64,000 nt of DNA from contig CAWFXA010000002.1 of NCBI GenBank assembly GCA_963819655.1, positions 480,001-544,000 of the forward strand. Reading direction: 5' to 3'. A program made the position numbers and the translations under genes. Below the pieces are notes generated by a model. That model had not been told where the DNA came from and searched no databases. It saw nothing but the letters and a program-made list of their open reading frames with translations. Source of the DNA: an uncultured Chloroflexia bacterium (GTDB lineage: Bacteria; Chloroflexota; Limnocylindria; Limnocylindrales; CSP1-4). Shown one piece after another: positions 1 through 8,110 of this stretch (position 1 is its first letter; each line of letters starts with the position of its first letter).

Positions 1-281
1 GGGAGCCGCTCGGCCCGTCGGGAGACGACGCCGCTGGACAGATCCGCCAAGCCCCGCCGACCGTCGCGGCCCACGAGAGCGAGCGCATCCAGATCGCGGT
101 CAGGAACACCTCCCAGCGTGTCGTCCGCGTATCCAGCCACTACCCGTTCGAGCGGGTGAATCGACGGCTCGAGTTCGATCGCGCCGCGGCCGCGGGGTGC
201 CGTCTCGACCTCGAGGCGGGATCCACCGAGCGCTGGGCTCCCGGAGAGACGCGGACCGTACGCCTGGTACGCGTCCGATGA
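1..281 (+). CDS. ureB: urease beta subunit-like domain, 5'-truncated by window edge (possibly gamma/beta fusion)
   Basis: Own translation ...RIQIAVRNTSQRVVRVSSHYPFERVNRRLEFDRAAAAGCRLDLEAGSTERWAPGETRTVRLVRVR* matches the urease beta pattern; TGA overlaps ATG of next gene (ATGA 278-281). Confidence 0.85.
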   Translation, partial: EPLGPSGDDAAGQIRQAPPTVAAHESERIQIAVRNTSQRVVRVSSHYPFERVNRRLEFDRAAAAGCRLDLEAGSTERWAPGETRTVRLVRVR

Positions 282-1942
282 CACGCCTCTCGCCGGACGA
301 GCGGCTGGCCCGCTACGGCCCCACGACCGACGATCGGGTCCGCCTCGGCGACACCGACTTGTGGGTGCGTGTGGCGGAAGACCGTCAAGCCCTCGGCGAC
401 GAGCCCATCTGGGGCTATGCCAAGACGATCCGGCCGAGGTCGGCCCAGGGCGGGGCGTCGCCGTCGGAGCTCGATACAGTCGTCGCCGGGGTGCTCGTCC
501 TCGATCCGGTCATCGGCGCGGTCAAGGCCGACATCGGGATCAAGGATGGGCGGATCGTCGGCGTCGGCCGGGCCGGCAACCCGGCCATCAGCGACGGCAT
601 CGATCTTGCGATCGGCCCGCACACCCAGCCCATCATGGGCTACGGCCTCATCGCGACGCCCGGCGCGATCGACAGCCACGTGCACCTCATCTCGCCCGAG
701 CTGTTGCCAGCCGCGCTCTCGGGCGGCGTCACGACGCTGATCACGGCCGGCTTCGAGGAGCCGCCGTGGGCGATGGCCCGGACGCTTGCCGCCGTCGCCG
801 ATTGGCCGCTCAACGTTGGCCTCCAGGCGTGCGCTCGCGCCGAGGACGACGGACCGCTCGACGCACTGCTCGAGGCTGGGGCGTGCGGCTTCAAGATCCA
901 CGAGGACTACGGCGCGTACCCGGAGCTCATCGACCACGTCCTCCGCTATGCCGACACGCGCGACGTCTCGGTCGCGCTCCACACCGATGGGCTGCACGAG
1001 AGCGCCGAGCTCGAGGACACGGTCGCGGCCATCGACGGGCGGACCGTGCACGCGTACCACGTCGAAGGCAGCGGTGGCGGCCACGTGCCCGATGTCATCG
1101 GCCTGGTCCGCGAGCCGAACGTCATCTGCTCATCGACCACGCCGACCGTCCCGTTCGGGGTGAATGCGGCCGCCGAGCAGGTCCCGATGATCGTCCTCAA
1201 TCACGGGGCGTCGTTCACGATCGAGGATGACCTCGCACTCGTTCGCGAGCGCGTCCACCCCGCGACGATGGCCGCCGAAGGGCCGCTCCACGAGCTCGGA
1301 GCGATCGCGATCGTCAATTCTGATTCGCAGGGGATGGGCCGGATGATGGAGACGGTCCGGCGGACGTTCCAGATGGCGCATGTCATGGGCTCGTGGTCGG
1401 GCAGCTCGCCTGCCGCGGACCCCTTCGATTCGACGGTGCGCGTCCTGCGCTACCTCGCGAAGGTCACCATCGAGCCGGCGATCACCCACGGCATCGCCGA
1501 CCACGTCGGATCGCTGAGGCGTGGCCGCCTCGCTGACATCGTCCTGTGGGAGCCGGCCTTCTTCGGCGTCAAACCGGCCCTCGTGCTGAAGGCCGGGGTG
1601 CCGGCGTGGGGCCCGCTCGGTGAGGGCAACGCCACGGTGGAAGGCGCCGAACCGACGCGTTACAGGCCCGACTGGGGTGGCCGGCCGAGGGCGGCCGCAT
1701 CGCTGTCGGCGACGTTCGTGTCGCGTGCCGCGACAGGGTCGCCCGAGCTGCGTCGCCACGGTCGGGAGCTCATCGCGGTCCGTGGGACACGTCGGCTGAC
1801 CCGCGACTCAATGGCACGGAACCGCAGCGTGGCCGCGGTCGAGGTGGACGTCGCGGACGGCCGCGTCACGCTCGACGGGCAGCCACTCGCGATCGACCCG
1901 GTCGCGGAGGTGCCGCTCAGCCGCCGTTACCTGCTGCGCTGA
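278..1942 (+). CDS. ureC: urease alpha subunit-like metallo-amidohydrolase (divergent)
   Basis: YGPTTDDRVRLGDT N-terminus; metal ligands IDSHVH, GFKIHEDYG, HTDGLHES, HAYHVEGSGGGH, NSDSQGMGR; C-terminal PLSRRYLL; start placed at ATG 278. Confidence 0.9.
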   Translation: MTRLSPDERLARYGPTTDDRVRLGDTDLWVRVAEDRQALGDEPIWGYAKTIRPRSAQGGASPSELDTVVAGVLVLDPVIGAVKADIGIKDGRIVGVGRAGNPAISDGIDLAIGPHTQPIMGYGLIATPGAIDSHVHLISPELLPAALSGGVTTLITAGFEEPPWAMARTLAAVADWPLNVGLQACARAEDDGPLDALLEAGACGFKIHEDYGAYPELIDHVLRYADTRDVSVALHTDGLHESAELEDTVAAIDGRTVHAYHVEGSGGGHVPDVIGLVREPNVICSSTTPTVPFGVNAAAEQVPMIVLNHGASFTIEDDLALVRERVHPATMAAEGPLHELGAIAIVNSDSQGMGRMMETVRRTFQMAHVMGSWSGSSPAADPFDSTVRVLRYLAKVTIEPAITHGIADHVGSLRRGRLADIVLWEPAFFGVKPALVLKAGVPAWGPLGEGNATVEGAEPTRYRPDWGGRPRAAASLSATFVSRAATGSPELRRHGRELIAVRGTRRLTRDSMARNRSVAAVEVDVADGRVTLDGQPLAIDPVAEVPLSRRYLLR

Positions 1943-2015
1943 GGAGTCGGTGTCGCACTGGATCGCGTGCGCCGCAGCGACACCGACGCGGATGAGCGCC
2001 CGCGTCGAACGGGAC

Positions 2016-2477
2016 TTAGCGTCCTCGCTGGACGTCGGCCAGCTCGCGCGCGATATCGCGCTTCGCGTCGCGGTCGGCGATGTCGCGCCGGCGGTCGTGG
2101 AGCTGTTTGCCACGCGCCAGCCCGAGCTCGATCTTGGCCTTGCCGCGGCTGAGGTAGAGCCGGAGAGGGACGATCGTCTGGCCCTTCTGCTGGGCGCGCC
2201 CAAGCAGCTCGTCGATCTCGCGCCGGTGGAGCAGCAGCTTGCGGTTCCGCTTCGGGTCGTGGTTATACCGATTGCCCTGCTCGAAGGGTGCGATGTCGGC
2301 GCCGATCAGCCATGCCTCACCCTTCTCGATGCGCGCGTAAGCATTGGCGATGTTCACCTTGCCGGCGCGGACCGACTTGATCTCGGTGCCGGTCAGGACG
2401 AGACCGGCCTCGAAGGTCTCGTCGATCGTGAATTCGTGGCGGGCTTTTCGGTTGAGGGCGATGGTCTGGTCGGACAT
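2016..2477 (-). CDS. smpB: SsrA-binding protein SmpB
   Basis: NRKARHEF...EAGLVLTGTEIKSVR, RKLLLHRREI, GKQLHDRR motifs. Confidence 0.98.
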   Translation of the reverse strand: MSDQTIALNRKARHEFTIDETFEAGLVLTGTEIKSVRAGKVNIANAYARIEKGEAWLIGADIAPFEQGNRYNHDPKRNRKLLLHRREIDELLGRAQQKGQTIVPLRLYLSRGKAKIELGLARGKQLHDRRRDIADRDAKRDIARELADVQRGR

Positions 2478-2513
2478 GAGAGCGCCTCGTGGCGTGCCTG
2501 TGCTGGATTCGCA

Positions 2514-2544
2514 CGAACGCCGGTCCTATGCGGACCGGCGTTCG
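2514..2544 (-). terminator. perfect 13-bp hairpin, putative terminator/attenuator of the mini-gene transcript
   Basis: cgaacgccggtcc-tatgc-ggaccggcgttcg; only a weak U-tract follows on the minus strand. Confidence 0.6.
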
Positions 2545-2572
2545 AGTTGCTTACCACCCACAGGGTGTCCGA

Positions 2573-2623
2573 CTAGACGGCCATCTCCTGCGAGGTGGTG
2601 CAGCTACGCGTACTGTCGATCAC
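2573..2623 (-). CDS. putative 16-aa peptide MIDSTRSCTTSQEMAV
   Basis: GTG start 5 nt after AAAGGAGGTGAT (2629-2640); TAG stop; own promoter and downstream hairpin. Confidence 0.55.
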   Translation of the reverse strand: MIDSTRSCTTSQEMAV

Positions 2624-2651
2624 TGCACATCACCTCCTTTCGTTCCGCGAA

Positions 2652-2680
2652 ACCGTACCCGAAGGCCAGCGTGAGCGCAA
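2652..2680 (-). promoter_or_regulatory. sigma70-like promoter for the mini-gene/smpB
   Basis: TTGCGC-17 nt-TACGGT on minus strand. Confidence 0.5.
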
Positions 2681-2687
2681 GGAGCCG

Positions 2688-4017
2688 TCAGCGGCGTCCG
2701 CCGGCCGGTATGACCGCACCTGCGCCGAGGACGTCGAGCGCCCTCTCGAGCACCGGATCGTGGCTCGGGACGCCGACGGCCGGGAGCTCGACCGCCACGT
2801 CGGGCTCGATGCCGACATCGTGGATCCAGCGCTTTGTCGGGGTCAGCCAACGGGCGATCGTGAGGCGGAACGCGCCGCCCTCGCCGGCCAGTTCCTGCCA
2901 CTGCTGGACCGTGCCCTTGCCGAACGAGCGCTGCCCGACGAGCGTCGCCCGGCCGCTGTCCTGGAGGGCCGCGGCGACGATCTCGCTGGCCGACGCGCTG
3001 CCACGATCGATGAGACACACGACCTCGATGGCGGGATCCGTGGCGGCCCCGCCCGGGATGGCGTCGGTGGCGGTCTGCCCGCCCTTTGCATCCTGCTCCC
3101 AGAAGATCGGGCCCGAGCCGATGAACTGGCTCGCGATCATGCGAGCGGCGGTGACGTAGCCGCCCGGGTTCCCGCGCAGATCGAGGATGAGCTTGGTGCG
3201 CCCGGCATCCACGTGAGCGCGCACGACCTGGGCCAGGTCCTCGGCGGAGTGATCGGAGAAGCCCTCGAGCCGGATGTAACCGACAGCGCCTTCCACGAGC
3301 TCCTTGGATTCGACCTCGCGCTCCTGGATGACGTCTCGCACGATGCGCAGGACGAACGGCACATCTTTGCCGCGCTGGATCCGCAGCTCGACCGTCGTGT
3401 CCTTGGGTCCGCGCATCCGTTCGCGCGCTACGTCGACGGTCAGGCCATCGAGCGCCACCCCGTCGGTGGCGAGGACGAGGTCGCCGGGCTTCAGGCCGGC
3501 CTTCTCGGCCGGCGACCCACCGATCGGGGCGACGATGACCAGCCGACACACTGGGCCCGAGCGTCGCGCAGCCCTGGGTCCCATCGGCGGCCTGCGTGGC
3601 GATCTCCGCGCCGATGCCCTCGAACTGCCCGCTGATCCCCTGCAGGTTCGAGCGGTACTGATCCGACGTCAGGTACGAGGAGTAGGGGTCCTCCAGGGAG
3701 TCGATCATCCCGCGGATGGCGCCCTGGACGACCACGTCGCGATCGACCTCACCGCCGGCGTACCGGTCCTGGATCGTGTGGTAGGTGTCCCAGAACGGCC
3801 GGAACGCCGTCCCGTCGGTGGCCGGGGTGCCCGGTTCGACCGCGCTCTGGCGGCCCATCGAGTAGCCGCTCACGAACAGCGCGCTGCCGGACAGCAGCGC
3901 GACGACGGTCACCGCGACCGACAGGATCGGGACCCGCCGGGATGGCTTCAGGACGGGATCGACCGGCGCGACGGACACCGCCTGCCGATCCTGCTGATCG
4001 AACTCACCTGAGTGCAT
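2688..4017 (-). CDS. ctpA: S41 family carboxyl-terminal processing protease (PDZ), apparent 1-nt frameshift near 3550
   Basis: N-part GMIDSLEDPYSSYL...FEGIGAEI in one frame; PDZ, LILDLRGNPGG, SASASEI, SFGKGTVQ in another. Confidence 0.88.
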
Positions 4018-4155
4018 GGCGGTATCCGGTTCCCCTCGAATCGAGCTATGACGGCGCCGCGTGACGGGCGCGACTGGGAACCAGAATGTACATCGACTAC
4101 CGATCGCGGGCCCCGGGTCGAAGGTACGGCCGACGGGGGCGACCCCCGCGGGTGC

Positions 4156-5046
4156 CTAGCGGATCAGGTAGGTCCGGACCGACACCCAGGAGCCGAGGAT
4201 GCCGAGACCGACGCCGGCGCCCATCACCAGCGTCACGAGGTCCCGCGTCAGCGAGCCGATCTGGAGCGGCAGGACGCGGAAGAACTCGACCAGGAAGCCG
4301 TTCAGCGGCTCGGCGGCGCCGGCCAGGATCGCCAGCGTCACGGCGGCCCCCAGGAAGCCGACGAAGGCCCCTTCGAAGACGAACGGCCAGCGGATGAACG
4401 CATCCGACGCGCCGACCAGCCGCATGATCTCGATCTCCTCGGCCCGGGCGACGACCGCCAGGCGGATCGCGTTCACGATGATGAACAGCACGATCAGCCC
4501 GACGGCCACCAGTAGGACGGTGCCGGCGGTGCGCAGGATGTTGGTCACGGTCAGCAGCCGGTCGACCAGGTCCTCGATGTTGATGACGTTGCGGACGATC
4601 GGATGCTCGCTCGGATCGAGGGCGTCGCCGACGACCTTGAGGGCGGACGGGTCGGTCAGTTTGACCTCGAGGCTCGCGTACAGCGGGTTGCTGTCCAGTT
4701 GAACGGTGAGGTCGGTTCGGCCCTGCGCCTCCATCGATTCCCGGAACCGCTCGAGCGCCTTGTCGCGGGTGACGACCTCGACCGATTCGACGTCGGGTCG
4801 CTGCTCGATCTCGGCCGCGAGCGCGTTGATCTGCGACTCCGTCGCGTTCTGGTGCAGGTAGGCGACCACCTCCACCTTCTGCTCGGTGAACTCGAGACCG
4901 GCCAGCAAGCCGGTCTGGATGATCCAGAAGCCGGCGAGCAGCAGCAGCATGAGGACCATCGTCGCGGTGGCGGCCAGGCTCATGAGCGCGTTGCGCCAGA
5001 AGCCCTCCCACGCGCGTTTCAGGCTGAAGAAGAGGAAGGCCAGCAC
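4156..5046 (-). CDS. ftsX: cell division permease FtsX
   Basis: NAIRLAVVARAEEIEIMRLVGASDAFIRWPF motif, TM helices, downstream of ftsE. Confidence 0.95.
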   Translation of the reverse strand: MLAFLFFSLKRAWEGFWRNALMSLAATATMVLMLLLLAGFWIIQTGLLAGLEFTEQKVEVVAYLHQNATESQINALAAEIEQRPDVESVEVVTRDKALERFRESMEAQGRTDLTVQLDSNPLYASLEVKLTDPSALKVVGDALDPSEHPIVRNVINIEDLVDRLLTVTNILRTAGTVLLVAVGLIVLFIIVNAIRLAVVARAEEIEIMRLVGASDAFIRWPFVFEGAFVGFLGAAVTLAILAGAAEPLNGFLVEFFRVLPLQIGSLTRDLVTLVMGAGVGLGILGSWVSVRTYLIR

Positions 5047-5052
5047 GCTCGG

Positions 5053-5874
5053 TCAGTCCTCGCGGTGGTAGGCGCCACCGACCTCGTCGCGGATGACGCG
5101 ACCCTCCTCGAGCGCGACGACGCGCTTGCGCAGGGCCGTGACGACCTCGGCGTTGTGGGTCGCCATGAGCACAGTGACGCCGAGCTCGTTGATGCGCAGA
5201 AGCAGCTGCAGGATCTCCCAGCTGATCAGCGGGTCGAGGTTGCCGGTGGGCTCGTCGGCGATGATCAGGCGCGGGTCGTGGACGAGGGCCCGCGCGATCG
5301 CCGTCCGCTGCTGCTCGCCACCTGACAACTGAGCAGGGGTCTGCTTCGACTGGGCGGTGAGACCGACGATCGCCAGCACGCGGTCGACTGCCGGTCGGAT
5401 CAGCCGCCGCGGATGGCCGGTGACTTCGAGCGCGAACGCGACGTTCTCCCAGACCGTCTTGGTCGGCAGCAGCTTGAAGTCCTGGAAGATGATGCCGATC
5501 TTGCGGCGCATGCGCGGCACCTGCCGGCGCGGGAGGCGCGCCAGGTCCTGGCCGTCGAGGACGACCTCACCGCGACTCGCGACCTCGTCGCGGATGAGCA
5601 GCTTGATGAGCGTCGACTTGCCGGCACCGGACGGTCCGACGAGGAAGACGAAATCGCCTTCGGGGATGACGAGATCGACGTCGCGCAGGGCGATCTTCCC
5701 GTTCGGGTACTGCTTCGTGACGTCGTGCAGCACGAGGACCGCGCGATCCGGGGCGGCCTGATCACGGCCGCGATCCAGGAACCGACGACGGAGCGAGCGC
5801 GCCGCCGATGGCGCTGGGGCGATGGTCACGGGCGACTCCGCGGGCGAGAGCGGGTGGCGATCGACTGTCGCCAC
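5053..5874 (-). CDS. ftsE: cell division ATP-binding protein FtsE (start uncertain)
   Basis: GPSGAGKST Walker A, FQDFKLL, LSGGEQQR, ADEPTGNLDP. Confidence 0.93.
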   Translation of the reverse strand: MATVDRHPLSPAESPVTIAPAPSAARSLRRRFLDRGRDQAAPDRAVLVLHDVTKQYPNGKIALRDVDLVIPEGDFVFLVGPSGAGKSTLIKLLIRDEVASRGEVVLDGQDLARLPRRQVPRMRRKIGIIFQDFKLLPTKTVWENVAFALEVTGHPRRLIRPAVDRVLAIVGLTAQSKQTPAQLSGGEQQRTAIARALVHDPRLIIADEPTGNLDPLISWEILQLLLRINELGVTVLMATHNAEVVTALRKRVVALEEGRVIRDEVGGAYHRED

Positions 5875-6013
5875 CGGGATTGCTTCGGTTCGACCCCGTC
5901 CGCGGGCACTGCAGCGGGAACCACGTCGGCCCCGAGGCTATCACCGCCCCTTCGGGCGGGCAAACGTACGGGCGGCCTACCGGGACCCGGACGATGGTCC
6001 GGTCCGGTCGGGT

Positions 6014-6982
6014 CTAGAGGAGTCCGGGAGAGATCGGCACATAGCGCGACAGGTCGACGAACGGCCGGTCCCAGCACAGCAGGACAGGGAACGGCCCGAG
6101 GCGGAATCCCGCCTGCAGAGCGCCGATCACGGCCCGATCCGCGGTCCCGGGCAGCCACACCGCGAAGGCTCCGCGCGGCGTCACCTCGGTCGTGAGATGG
6201 CCGAGGATCGGGGCGAGCAGGTCGGGATCGCGGCTCGCGACAGGACCGACGCGGCCCGCCTCGGTCGCGTAGCCGTACGCCAGCGGCGTGCCATCCGGTC
6301 CGGCGTAGAGCCAGCCACGTCGGTTCTCCTGGCGCAGATAGCCGTGGTCGATGGGATGGCTGACGCCGAGGGTCTCGCGATCGAGCGCGTCGACGACCGT
6401 CACGAGCTCGTCGTGCCCATCGGCCGCCACGCGCTCGAACGACGTGGCGCGGATGCCCGCCGGCAGCGGGCCGAAGGCGTCCGGGCGCGCCGGCAGGCCG
6501 ATCAGGTCGAGCAAGGGGACGCGGGGCAAGATCCCGAGGGACGCATACAGGGCGTTGCTGATGGGCTGGGCGCTGTCCGTGCCGGTCGCCCGGACCGTGG
6601 CGGCGTCCGCGGGCGGCGCGATCCGCGCGAGGAGGGTCCGGCCGACGCCGCTGCCCTGGGCCTCGGGCAGCACGAAGCACATCGACAGGAACCATAGCCG
6701 CTCGCGGACGACGGCCGCGGCGAACGCCACGATCCGCTCGCCTCCTTGCGCCTCTGGGTCCGGTCGGGTGGCGACGACGAACCGCTCGGGATCGGTCGAC
6801 TGGAGGTGGGCATAGAGGCGGACGAGTGGCGCATTCTCGGCCTGCATGTCCGGTTGGTTCAGCCGGCCGATGTAGTCGTTGATCGACACGCGCCATACGT
6901 CGGCGCACGCATCGAGCTCGTCAGGGCGGACAGGCCGATACGAGAGCGCGCCCCGGACCGCGGGCTCAGGGCGCACGGTCAC
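6014..6982 (-). CDS. GNAT family N-acetyltransferase
   Basis: FVLPEAQGSGVGRTLL acetyl-CoA motif; GTG start overlaps prfB stop (GTGA). Confidence 0.85.
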   Translation of the reverse strand: MTVRPEPAVRGALSYRPVRPDELDACADVWRVSINDYIGRLNQPDMQAENAPLVRLYAHLQSTDPERFVVATRPDPEAQGGERIVAFAAAVVRERLWFLSMCFVLPEAQGSGVGRTLLARIAPPADAATVRATGTDSAQPISNALYASLGILPRVPLLDLIGLPARPDAFGPLPAGIRATSFERVAADGHDELVTVVDALDRETLGVSHPIDHGYLRQENRRGWLYAGPDGTPLAYGYATEAGRVGPVASRDPDLLAPILGHLTTEVTPRGAFAVWLPGTADRAVIGALQAGFRLGPFPVLLCWDRPFVDLSRYVPISPGLL

Positions 6983-8110
6983 GCAGCGTCGCCCTCCGGG
7001 TCGCTGACGCGCCACTCCCCGCCGGTCGCGAGGCGCTCGAGCTCGGCCTGCATGAACGCGTCAAGGTCGCCGTCGAGGACCGCCGTGGTGTTGCCGGTCT
7101 CATGGCCCGTGCGCAGGTCCTTGACCATCTGGTACGGGTGCAGGACGTAGCTCCGGATCTGGTTGCCCCAGCCGGCTTCGACGTGCTCACCCTTCAGGGC
7201 GCGAAGCTCCGCCTCCTTCTCCTCGAGGGCACGCTCGAGCAGGCGTGACTTGAGGACCTTGATCGCGTTCTCCTTGTTCTGGGTCTGCGATCGCTCGTTC
7301 TGGCTCTGGACGACGATCCCTGTCGGATTGTGCGTGAGGCGCACCGCCGAATCGGTCTTGTTGACGTGCTGGCCGCCGGCGCCCTGGGCGCGATACGTGT
7401 CGACCCGGATCTCGTCCCAATCGAGCTCGATCTCGACGTCGTCGTCGGCTTCCGGAAGGACCTCGACCAAGGCGAATGTGGTCTGGCGTCGGTTCTGTGA
7501 GTCGAACGGGCTGATGCGAACGAGTCGATGGACTCCGCGCTCGGCGCGCAGCCAGCCATACGCGCGCCGGCCGTCGACCTCCACGGTCACGCTCTTGAGC
7601 CCGGCCTGCTCGCCCTCCTGCTGGTCGATGATCTCGGTCTTGAAGCGGTGGCTGGCGGCCCAGCGCAGGTACATCCGCAGCAGCATCTCGGCCCAGTCGG
7701 TCGCCTCCGTGCCACCGGCGCCGGCGCTGATCGACAGGATCGCCGAGCGCTCGTCGTGTTCGCCGGAGAACAGGAGCGCGGTCCGCTCTCGTGCGAAATC
7801 CTTCTCGAGCGCGGCGGCATCCCGTTCGAGCTCGGCCTCGAGCTCGGCGTCGGCGCTCTCGTTGAGCAGCTCGAGGGCCGCCTCGAGGTCGTCGGCGCGG
7901 GCCAGCAGCCCATGCCACATCTCGATCTCGGAGCGGAGGCCGTCGGCCTCCCGGAGGACCCTCTGGGCGCCGCGCTGGTCGTCCCAGAACCCGGGTTCCG
8001 TCGTCAGCGCATCCAGCTCTGCGACGCGTTGTTGCTTGGCGTCGAGGTCAAAGACGCCCCGACGTCGACCGGATCCGTTCGGCCAGGCCGCGGATGGCGG
8101 ACGCGTCCAC
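6979..8110 (-). CDS. prfB: peptide chain release factor 2 with programmed +1 frameshift
   Basis: SPF and GGQ motifs; 20-codon first frame from GTG 8110 ends ...GGG CGT CTT TGA C, continuing +1 as DLDAKQQRVAELDALTTEPGFWDD. Confidence 0.97.
8047..8062 (-). promoter_or_regulatory. prfB autoregulatory frameshift site
   Basis: TCGGGGCGT CTT TGA C: internal SD-like G-run plus canonical CTTTGAC slippery site. Confidence 0.93.

Follow-up and report, generated by a model that had tools for sequence, protein, structure and literature searches.

A probable Chloroflexota version of the rre-type ribosome-docking small mRNA, found in the 5' leader of smpB in Limnocylindria

The DNA considered here, called the window, is a stretch of 64,000 nucleotides (nt) from an uncultured Chloroflexia bacterium (contig CAWFXA010000002.1, 480,001-544,000), and all mini-gene coordinates are window positions on the minus strand. 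Near the start of the window, the spacer between a gene for an S41/PDZ protease (stop codon 2690-2688) and smpB (2477-2016), all on this strand, is filled by a mini-gene. It consists of promoter-like boxes, an extended Shine-Dalgarno (SD) sequence, a small open reading frame (sORF) of 16 codons and a GC-rich hairpin (Table 1). The product of smpB matches PF01668 (E 7.9e-60) and NF003843 (209.6 bits, cut-off 130). With moderate confidence, and by analogy with the alphaproteobacterial rre RNAs, the mini-gene is regarded as a Chloroflexota version of an rre-type ribosome-docking small mRNA that forms the 5' leader of smpB in the class Limnocylindria. That confidence applies to the identity and design of the mini-gene.

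Table 1. Features of the mini-gene and of smpB in the window.
Feature	Position	Strand	Basis or remark
-35-like box TTGCGC	2675..2680 (written 2680-2675)	-	sequence reading; missed by consensus scan
-10-like box TACGGT (TAnnnT), 17 nt after the -35 box	2652..2657	-	sequence reading
Predicted transcription start G, 6 nt past the -10 box	2646	-	near-invariant sequence from here; RNA contig ends
GAAAGGAGGTGAT, extended SD, 13-nt perfect complement of the 16S rRNA 3' tail	2629..2641	-	
sORF: GTG, 15 codons and TAG; peptide MIDSTRSCTTSQEMAV	2573..2623 (GTG 2623-2621, TAG 2575-2573)	-	
P1 5' strand, GAGGTG..GTGCAGT: SD core, spacer, part of start codon	2622..2636	-	RNAalifold consensus
P1 3' strand, GCTGCACCACCTC: internal anti-SD, 16S-tail mimic, codons 7-11	2592..2604	-	RNAalifold and pair counts
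Helix 2:3 5' strand (CCACCT, C bulge, GCAGG)	2587..2598	-	constrained folds, 8 families
Helix 2:3 3' strand (CCTGT GGGTGG), anti-anti-SD, 3' of the stop codon	2554..2564	-	swapped-partner energies
Small inner hairpin CCG-TCTAGT-CGG, stop codon in loop	2569..2580	-	stem variants across lineages
13-bp perfect GC-rich hairpin CGAACGCCGGTCC-GCATA-GGACCGGCGTTCG, then TGCG	2514..2544	-	leaky terminator or 3'-end hairpin
smpB (SsrA-binding protein), ATG at 2477, 36 nt past the hairpin	2016..2477	-	PF01668, NF003843

An earlier interpretation made from the letters of the window, here the sequence-only reading, had described the GTG start, the 16-residue frame encoding MIDSTRSCTTSQEMAV, the 13-bp hairpin and the 36-nt gap before smpB, and all of these are present as described. 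It had also noticed a 12-nt complement of the usual 16S ribosomal RNA (rRNA) tail, AAAGGAGGTGAT (2640-2629). This held up against the host's own rRNA and proved longer: the genome's 16S 3' end reads ...GGATCACCTCCTTTCT, so that with G2641 added, GAAAGGAGGTGAT is a perfect 13-nt complement of the host tail. Two exact copies of this 13-mer occur in the 3.49-Mb genome, one antisense to the 16S gene and the other, the sole non-rRNA copy, at the mini-gene. Across 87 aligned sequences from family f1 it is invariant in 87/87 except at A16. Within the window, the SD motif has one match when up to two mismatches are allowed, and at least one match also appears in 53 of 100 shuffled sequences. The motif count alone is therefore not significant, and the case for the mini-gene rests on conservation.

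The promoter and the terminal hairpin escape standard scans, with no call at the mini-gene from either a consensus promoter scan or a terminator scan. The hairpin was left uncalled because it has no T-run, and the -35-like box agrees with TTGACA at only 3/6 positions. The promoter proposed by the sequence-only reading, TTGCGC-17-TACGGT, nevertheless finds support in the conservation of its boxes. CTTGC[GA] is kept at the -35 region in a 30-locus alignment and in distant families, while the -10 box takes the forms TAATGT, TAGGCT, TACTCT, TATCTT and TAGCAT in relatives, with the T-A and the final T constant and the middle variable.

The whole unit, -35 box through hairpin, is present in 36/36 genomes of the same genus and in 79/80 loci anchored on SmpB, the exception having no upstream DNA. 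These SmpB-anchored relatives are Chloroflexota metagenome-assembled genomes (MAGs) of Candidatus Limnocylindrales/Limnocylindria, and most of them come from soil. The census of the class and the phylum rests on a covariance model trained on 87 distinct family-f1 sequences, which gave one top match per genome in 105/151 class genomes. By family, matches were found in 44/44 (f1), 6/6 (f2), 49/50 (f4), 4/49 (f3) and 1/1 (f5) genomes. These tallies include three unpublished genomes (G141, G150 and G175), all matching; excluding them, the counts are 102/148 overall and 46/47 for f4. The model misses divergent copies, and the low f3 tally reflects its reach, as both f3 loci fetched (L163 and L164) carry a longer, divergent element.

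Linkage to smpB is nearly complete in the class. Among the 158 Limnocylindria loci having the SD core, smpB lies downstream on the same strand in 156, and it does so in 20/20 representatives of distant families. The two exceptions are a locus in which the element is inverted (L068) and one at a contig edge (L132). The S41 gene lies upstream in 151 of the 158 loci, and five loci without it still have smpB. The check proposed with the sequence-only reading, that is, a search of relatives for the SD, short frame and hairpin together, therefore returned a unit that is kept upstream of smpB. From hairpin to smpB start the spacer measures 16-275 nt (median 50.5, 126 distinct loci). In eight lineages it is 16-24 nt, too short to accommodate a promoter, and transcription of smpB must therefore pass through the hairpin in them.

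Three side observations concern this region. Only the element is reversed in L068 (988-1124), where it stands between the S41 gene and smpB; a small inversion event or an artefact of assembly could account for this. Four loci (L017, L018, L064 and L085) have an extra inverted repeat of ~45 nt (CCTCGG...GGCCTCC...CCGAGG type) inserted between hairpin and smpB, which may be a small mobile hairpin. Finally, in family f4 (L152-L162) the smpB start lies in a conserved GACCGATGCC context without a recognisable SD, whereas family f1 has AGGAG.

The short frame has been kept across the phylum. In 100/102 strict-anchor loci the frame from the GTG is intact at 14-17 codons. Across 129 distinct Chloroflexota elements, a start codon follows GGAGG by 8-11 nt in all 129 (GTG 117, ATG 12) and an in-frame stop is present in all 129 (TAG 97, TAA 21, TGA 11), giving frames of 13-28 codons; in most elements a stop ends each of the other two frames after 0-5 codons. 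Start type and stop type switch between lineages whose surrounding sequence differs too. Length differences within the frame come in 3-nt steps in several lineages, while insertions and deletions past the stop are of 1-2 nt. Judged from these sequence patterns, the 16-codon frame is real and conserved as a frame.

These patterns bear on whether the RNA codes at all. A non-coding regulatory RNA, with the frame as a by-product, might act in trans by masking the ribosome-binding sites of other mRNAs with its anti-SD, or serve as a decoy for 30S ribosomal subunits. The mini-gene stretch is in fact nearly invariant in alignments in which the flanking coding DNA varies at wobble positions, so that its nucleotide conservation is far above that of its flanks and shows no wobble pattern. 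In addition, the related alphaproteobacterial RNA CC2171 is filed as a non-coding small RNA (sRNA) of unknown function with a Northern-blot signal in two alphaproteobacteria (bioRxiv 10.1101/2022.01.24.477521). However, a by-product frame would hardly keep its start and stop through changes of codon type or alter its length in 3-nt steps, and overexpression of rreB did not slow growth, as reported by Hahn et al. (PMC5711450). A purely non-coding role is accordingly considered improbable.

The encoded peptide is a different matter. Its sequence is poorly conserved and varies widely between families, at 13-28 residues. Family f1 encodes MIDSTRSCTTSQEMAV and MLDKSCCTTSRESLA, family f2 MSNGSCTAASHEVSA, family f4 MSSSCHATTEAVR and family f3 a 28-residue form ending ...MHKTEVIAS, while other Chloroflexota classes encode MSDQPIGITSGKVS, MNDSSHCSITEGLL and MIDSSYLSTAVAPLLDSFR. 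C-termini across families are R, H, Q, S, T, A, V or L (for example ...EAVR, ...EAVH, ...EVIAS and ...GKVS). The idea that the nonpolar -MAV end is a degron is not supported, given this variation. Codon-level conservation, suggested as a check with emphasis on a C-terminal E-x-A-V, is thus found for frame, start and stop and not for that motif.

It is unlikely, for the same reasons, that the unit is simply a free-standing micropeptide gene whose folds only tune synthesis and whose position before smpB is incidental gene order. Such a gene would fit the frame being kept in every distinct element, the free-standing copies in other Chloroflexota (see below) and a recurrent N-terminal pattern, M-x-D-S / M-S-S-S, which sits in the P1 loop across families and is unexplained by pairing. 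It would not explain why the peptides differ so much between families in sequence and length, why the most widely common residues (T-T and E) are those encoded by RNA pairing segments, namely the anti-SD and helix 2:3, or why rescue genes are neighbours in a second lineage as well. The RreB and RreR peptides, made synthetically, were unstructured, and a construct expected to overproduce RreB had no growth effect (PMC5711450).

The pairing segments themselves describe two competing folds. In the RNAalifold consensus, GAGGUG..GUGCAGU (SD core, spacer and start) pairs with GCUGCAC.CACCUC to form helix P1, and the first five nt of GAAAGGAGGTGAT (GAAAG) are predicted to remain free at the 5' end. 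The internal partner of the SD reads CACCACCUC (AUCACCUC in another family) and amounts to a copy of the 16S tail. For pair counts, 33 distinct sequences from across the phylum were aligned by fitting them to the model, which biases the alignment towards the model's structure. Taking P1 and the terminal hairpin together, pairing is found in 95% of cells; the corresponding figures are 78.8% for shuffles and 33-49% for slid partners. Of the 23 modelled pairs, 17 change on both sides. Compensatory changes are seen in all 7 inner P1 pairs and all 10 modelled hairpin pairs. The six SD-core pairs of P1, 92% paired, never change on both sides because the SD is fixed.

Alternatively, the internal anti-SD and the codons that follow can pair with a segment after the stop codon (CCUGU-GGGUGG; GUGGUG elsewhere). 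The 5' strand of this helix 2:3 overlaps the anti-SD, so the helix excludes P1. It has compensatory variants, including GCAGG/CCTGT, ACAGG/CCTGT, CCCGG/CCGGG, CTGGG/CCCAG, CTCGGG/CCCGAG and others, and native partners are predicted to pair more stably than swapped ones (median -25.5 vs -21.2 kcal/mol, 84 distinct combinations). Helix 2:3 encloses a small hairpin whose loop always contains the stop codon. The stem of this hairpin is CCG/CGG, GCTC/GAGC, CGAC/GTCG or CCGC/GCGG depending on the lineage, and the in-frame stop remains in the loop. The predicted energy gap between the two folds is small (median -0.4 kcal/mol, 101 distinct leaders), and the predicted probability of the SD core being paired has a median of 0.61. 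With both helices covarying and their predicted energies nearly equal, the models point to a two-state switch. Two further pairing ideas were set aside. Pairing of the G-rich third segment or of the anti-SD with the smpB start region, assessed by eye, was inconsistent between species and was dropped. Counting T residues after the hairpin in smpB-linked and free-standing copies was uninformative, because long A/U-extended stems shift the counting window.

RNA data indicate that the mini-gene is expressed. Thirteen runs on record as RNA, from soil, rhizosphere and groundwater, contain the mini-gene stretch, and four of them (X1, X2, X3 and X9) were examined as assembled contigs. Record 19 of X3 spans 2481-2646 with no mismatch and ends at the predicted start, and records 23, 25 and 26 of X9 end at 2645-2646. 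These contig ends from two studies are a weak hint in favour of the start site. Record 3 of X1 (2440-2675) and record 10 of X2 (2459-2583) cross the hairpin into smpB. Contig depths give no expression ranking, and gaps in the RNA contig cover, such as 2676-2740, were given no weight as evidence. One further observation is that sequencing-adapter letters are joined to X3 record 19 at 2481, a point 32 nt beyond the hairpin and 4 nt short of the smpB ATG. This junction could be a recurrent fragment end or a processing site.

Outside Limnocylindria, the family-f1 model also matches other Chloroflexota families. Nine of 13 fetched phylum-level matches are the full unit, with an SD complement, a frame of 13-21 codons, an SD:anti-SD hairpin and a U-rich terminator. 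The other four (L185, L187, L188 and L189) were judged by eye to be hairpin-only false positives. The verified free-standing elements have unrelated neighbours (murI, moeA, a LysM gene, ybjN, a methyltransferase gene and a biotin ligase gene), and the S41 gene was also not found in the fetched DNA of these nine.

Among known systems, the rre RNAs of Alphaproteobacteria offer the closest parallel. As described by Hahn et al. (RNA Biol 14:1353, PMC5711450), rreB is an mRNA of 165 nt that has a promoter and a terminator of its own. Its 14-codon sORF starts with a GTG, into which a 17-nt complement of the 16S tail runs; only the five 5' nt of this complement are free, the remainder lying in a conserved hairpin. 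The RNA binds 30S subunits strongly and is weakly translated, and removal of its start codon stabilises the transcript (PMC5711450). E. coli 30S subunits bind rreB weakly (PMC5711450). In that paper, analogues are reported only from Alphaproteobacteria, with rreB in Bradyrhizobiaceae and rreR in Rhodobacterales, and rre function is called elusive; a trapped ribosome, cleavage and rescue were proposed for rreB (PMC5711450). Both conservation and expression are on record for the rre/CC2171 RNAs. Library searches found no later paper on them and none on an smpB leader or upstream open reading frame (uORF).

The mini-gene resembles these RNAs in having a terminal hairpin and in being present in one copy per genome, and it may, like them, be a small transcription unit with a promoter and terminator of its own. 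Its promoter boxes are conserved and contigs stop at the predicted start; its hairpin covaries, lacks a U-run and is passed through by contigs. In both, the SD is extended into a long perfect complement of the 16S tail of which only the 5' nt are single-stranded (here as predicted) and the rest lies in a conserved hairpin. Both have a GTG-started sORF, of 14-18 codons in rre and 16 in the mini-gene, and peptides that are unlike between clades. The best partner of the SD also lies inside the sORF in 72/80 alphaproteobacterial rre/CC2171 loci. The mini-gene differs in having a covarying third segment, the anti-anti-SD, which places the stop codon in a loop, and in a hairpin without a U-run, from which RNA continues into smpB.

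A scan of window positions 1-8000 against Rfam gave four weak matches, none near its gathering score, and RF01867 (Caulobacter sRNA CC2171) was the only family touching the mini-gene (2517-2649, minus strand). The match covers the 5' GAAAGGAGGUGA, the surroundings of the start codon and the terminal hairpin, and it leaves the middle of the model unmatched. A motif taken from the CC2171 consensus retrieves alphaproteobacterial loci with conserved sORFs of 14-30 codons, including a Bradyrhizobium locus with a 14-codon frame, as for rreB.

Taken as an rre-type leader, the mini-gene would work as follows. The conserved promoter would start the RNA at about G2646, with the 13-nt complement of the 16S tail five nt later, then the GTG start and the 16-codon frame. 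Codons 7-11, the internal copy of the 16S tail, would fold back on the SD and start codon (P1), leaving ~5 nt free as a toehold for the 30S subunit. The third segment, after the stop codon, could capture the internal copy in helix 2:3, which would free the ribosome-binding site and place the stop codon in a hairpin loop. The GC-rich hairpin with its poor U-tract would follow, and part of the transcripts would continue into smpB. The docked ribosome would be held or slowed, as the work on rreB suggests, and by the same analogy its fate, rescued or persisting, would set the lifetime of the leader-smpB transcript. SmpB supply would therefore follow the demand for ribosome rescue.

The sequence-only reading had left three options, a micropeptide gene, an smpB leader and a 30S-binding small RNA, and the present picture mixes the last two. 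The micropeptide option keeps its frame and loses the peptide, which is not itself conserved. The leader option is supported by collinearity with smpB within the class, by contigs running into smpB and by the shortest spacers, although the unit is free-standing outside the class. The small-RNA option is supported by the likeness to rre mRNAs with their extended 16S-tail complement, with 30S binding itself attributed by analogy with rreB.

Several observations weigh against the rre-type leader. With regard to the frame, a +1 insertion or frameshift in the sORF of two loci (L006 and L036) gives 24 codons. With regard to transcription, the X1 contig extends 29 nt upstream of the predicted start, and the RNA evidence consists of assembled contigs, which cannot prove ends, strand or level and may include DNA carry-over. 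With regard to the fold, no antiterminator was found, as the segment between stop and hairpin pairs with the 5' arm of the hairpin no better than shuffled sequences do in 14 representatives. The hairpin is intact in both folds (constrained folds, 8 families), and no structural route from switch to read-through is visible; the switch would therefore govern the ribosome-binding site and not the terminator. With regard to linkage, smpB is not downstream in 9/9 verified elements outside Limnocylindria (flanks of ~115-1000 nt), so that the unit is primarily a gene that stands on its own, and its linkage to smpB could be the gene order of one class. In 5/5 alphaproteobacterial genomes checked, the CC2171-type gene is likewise not near smpB, lying at least 81 kb away. 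With regard to the type of RNA, the CC2171 match reaches 16 bits (E 5.9), below the gathering score of 75 and thus short of membership in the family. The mini-gene complement is 13 nt long, against the 16-17 nt that define rre, and it ends 5 nt before the start codon, whereas that of rre includes its first base.

The taxon differs as well, Chloroflexota here and Alphaproteobacteria for the reported rre RNAs. In light of this, the mini-gene RNA would work like an rre RNA and is not filed as a member, on account of the shorter complement, its distance from the start codon and the taxon. Binding of 30S subunits, weak translation and start-codon-dependent decay were shown for rreB only and are extended to the mini-gene RNA by analogy.

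The same fold results bear on ribosome-mediated attenuation of the trp/whiB7 type, in which stalling would favour an antiterminator and so open the terminator before smpB. The layout of promoter, short frame, hairpin and gene is that of such attenuators, and the whiB7 uORF leader of mycobacteria, which responds to ribosome stalling (bioRxiv 10.1101/2025.10.10.681568), is a precedent. However, no segment overlaps and competes with the mini-gene hairpin, which forms in both states, and the alternative folds govern the ribosome-binding site instead. Since 19-31 nt separate the stop codon from the stem, the hairpin would not be covered by a ribosome that terminates there. An attenuator would also always stand before the gene it controls, whereas the unit does so in 156/158 loci in Limnocylindria and in 0/9 verified elements elsewhere, where it is solitary, with a strong terminator and no downstream partner. 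Attenuation of this kind is therefore highly improbable.

A further possibility is a mere 5' stabiliser of smpB mRNA, in which a parked 30S subunit and a 5' hairpin block decay that depends on the 5' end, with no sensing. The model here is STAB-SD of the Bacillus thuringiensis cry3A mRNA (PMC4113751). Located near the 5' end, this SD-like sequence base-pairs with the 3' end of 16S rRNA, and a 30S subunit may be parked there. The mini-gene SD is also complementary to the 16S 3' end and lies 5 nt from the 5' end, with a stable hairpin behind it. STAB-SD starts no translation, and the mini-gene, by contrast, conserves a start codon 9 nt past GGAGG, a frame and a stop-in-loop, with start and stop kept in 129/129 elements, which sets it apart from the STAB-SD class. 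Neither the anti-anti-SD helix nor the hairpin before the gene would be needed by a stabiliser, and the start codon of rreB shortens rather than lengthens transcript life (PMC5711450). Pure stabilisation is considered improbable.

Gene neighbourhoods in other lineages add a different line of evidence for the rre-type leader. A scan for rreR-type leaders returned 120 loci from many phyla, 80 of them with flanks. In 14/15 Rhodobacterales-type loci with downstream DNA (18-codon MHHEVLE... frame), a gene of ~140 residues with an RF-1 domain follows on the same strand, beginning 87-442 nt past the start of the search-pattern match. Four of these genes were tested and are ArfB (NF006718, 179-191 bits, cut-off 100). 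At a single Methylomirabilis locus (n=1) an Smr-domain gene occupies the arfB-like position, with NCBIfam scores below cut-offs, and the other lineages in the scan have unrelated neighbours. RNAs of rre design thus stand directly before two different rescue genes, smpB and arfB, in two phyla, which makes a functional link to ribosome rescue plausible.

The recurrence of this arrangement, with a different rescue gene in each of two phyla, is what newly supports a broader and more tentative idea, in which rre-type mini-mRNAs are ribosome-trap sensors that set the supply of rescue factors. We hold this possible rather than likely. In such a loop, the over-long SD would hold a ribosome at the start of the tiny frame. 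Where rescue capacity is ample, the trapped complex would be resolved and the cleaved transcript would decay. Where it is scarce, the parked ribosome would shield the 5' end, and more product of the co-transcribed rescue gene would be made. Limnocylindria would use smpB in this role, Rhodobacterales arfB and the Methylomirabilis locus perhaps its Smr-domain gene, and free-standing copies would represent an ancestral or trans-acting form.

If the present reading holds, the rre type would extend to Chloroflexota with a three-part switch (SD, internal 16S-tail mimic and anti-anti-SD), and an rre-like RNA would be in use as an smpB leader across a whole class. The smpB linkage and the rreR-arfB adjacency together provide the first gene-context argument for rre function, namely coupling to ribosome rescue. 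This hypothesis is directly testable in culturable Rhodobacterales, for which genetics exist.

A transfer-messenger RNA (tmRNA; RF00023) or a piece of one was considered as the identity of the mini-gene and was rejected. ARAGORN finds none in the window, and the genome has an ordinary one-piece tmRNA gene elsewhere, at 478835-479210 (+) of contig 2 (120.9 bits), which Rfam called and ARAGORN did not; the mini-gene is therefore not tmRNA. A resemblance of the stop-codon hairpin to tmRNA helix 5 (CCGU-CUAG-UCGG vs GCCGC-UUAG-GCGG), together with a UCGACAG shared with the tmRNA D-loop, was judged to be at chance level. The tmRNA gene itself lies ~0.8 kb before window position 1, on the strand opposite to smpB; the distance between the two is ~2.8 kb and includes a urease alpha-subunit gene (2-1942, +).

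On the other side of the mini-gene, the tail-specific protease named by the sequence-only reading is supported by its S41 and PDZ domains, and the gene is frameshifted in the assembly. It spans 2688-4017 (-) and is split over two frames with a break near 3559; a CtpB_N domain lies in the frame starting at 4017, and the PDZ and S41 domains lie in the frame ending at 2688. Compared with 4/4 aligned relatives, a G/C run is longer by one base, through either a homopolymer error of long-read sequencing or a genuine frameshift.

The rreR-type scan also returned extended SD sequences in other settings. In four Bacteroidota loci (L311, L317, L339 and L349; Flavobacteriia-type), an 18-nt 16S-tail complement and a GTG lie within or at the end of a nusG-like frame upstream of rplK (L11), which is a different use of such a sequence. 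A 16S-tail complement of 18 nt or more also precedes short frames (L312-L390) in Planctomycetota, Betaproteobacteria, Myxococcota, Krumholzibacteriia, Binatia and others. Several of these frames finish with ...GEVV.. or ...CEVI.. and so contain a second GAGGUG.

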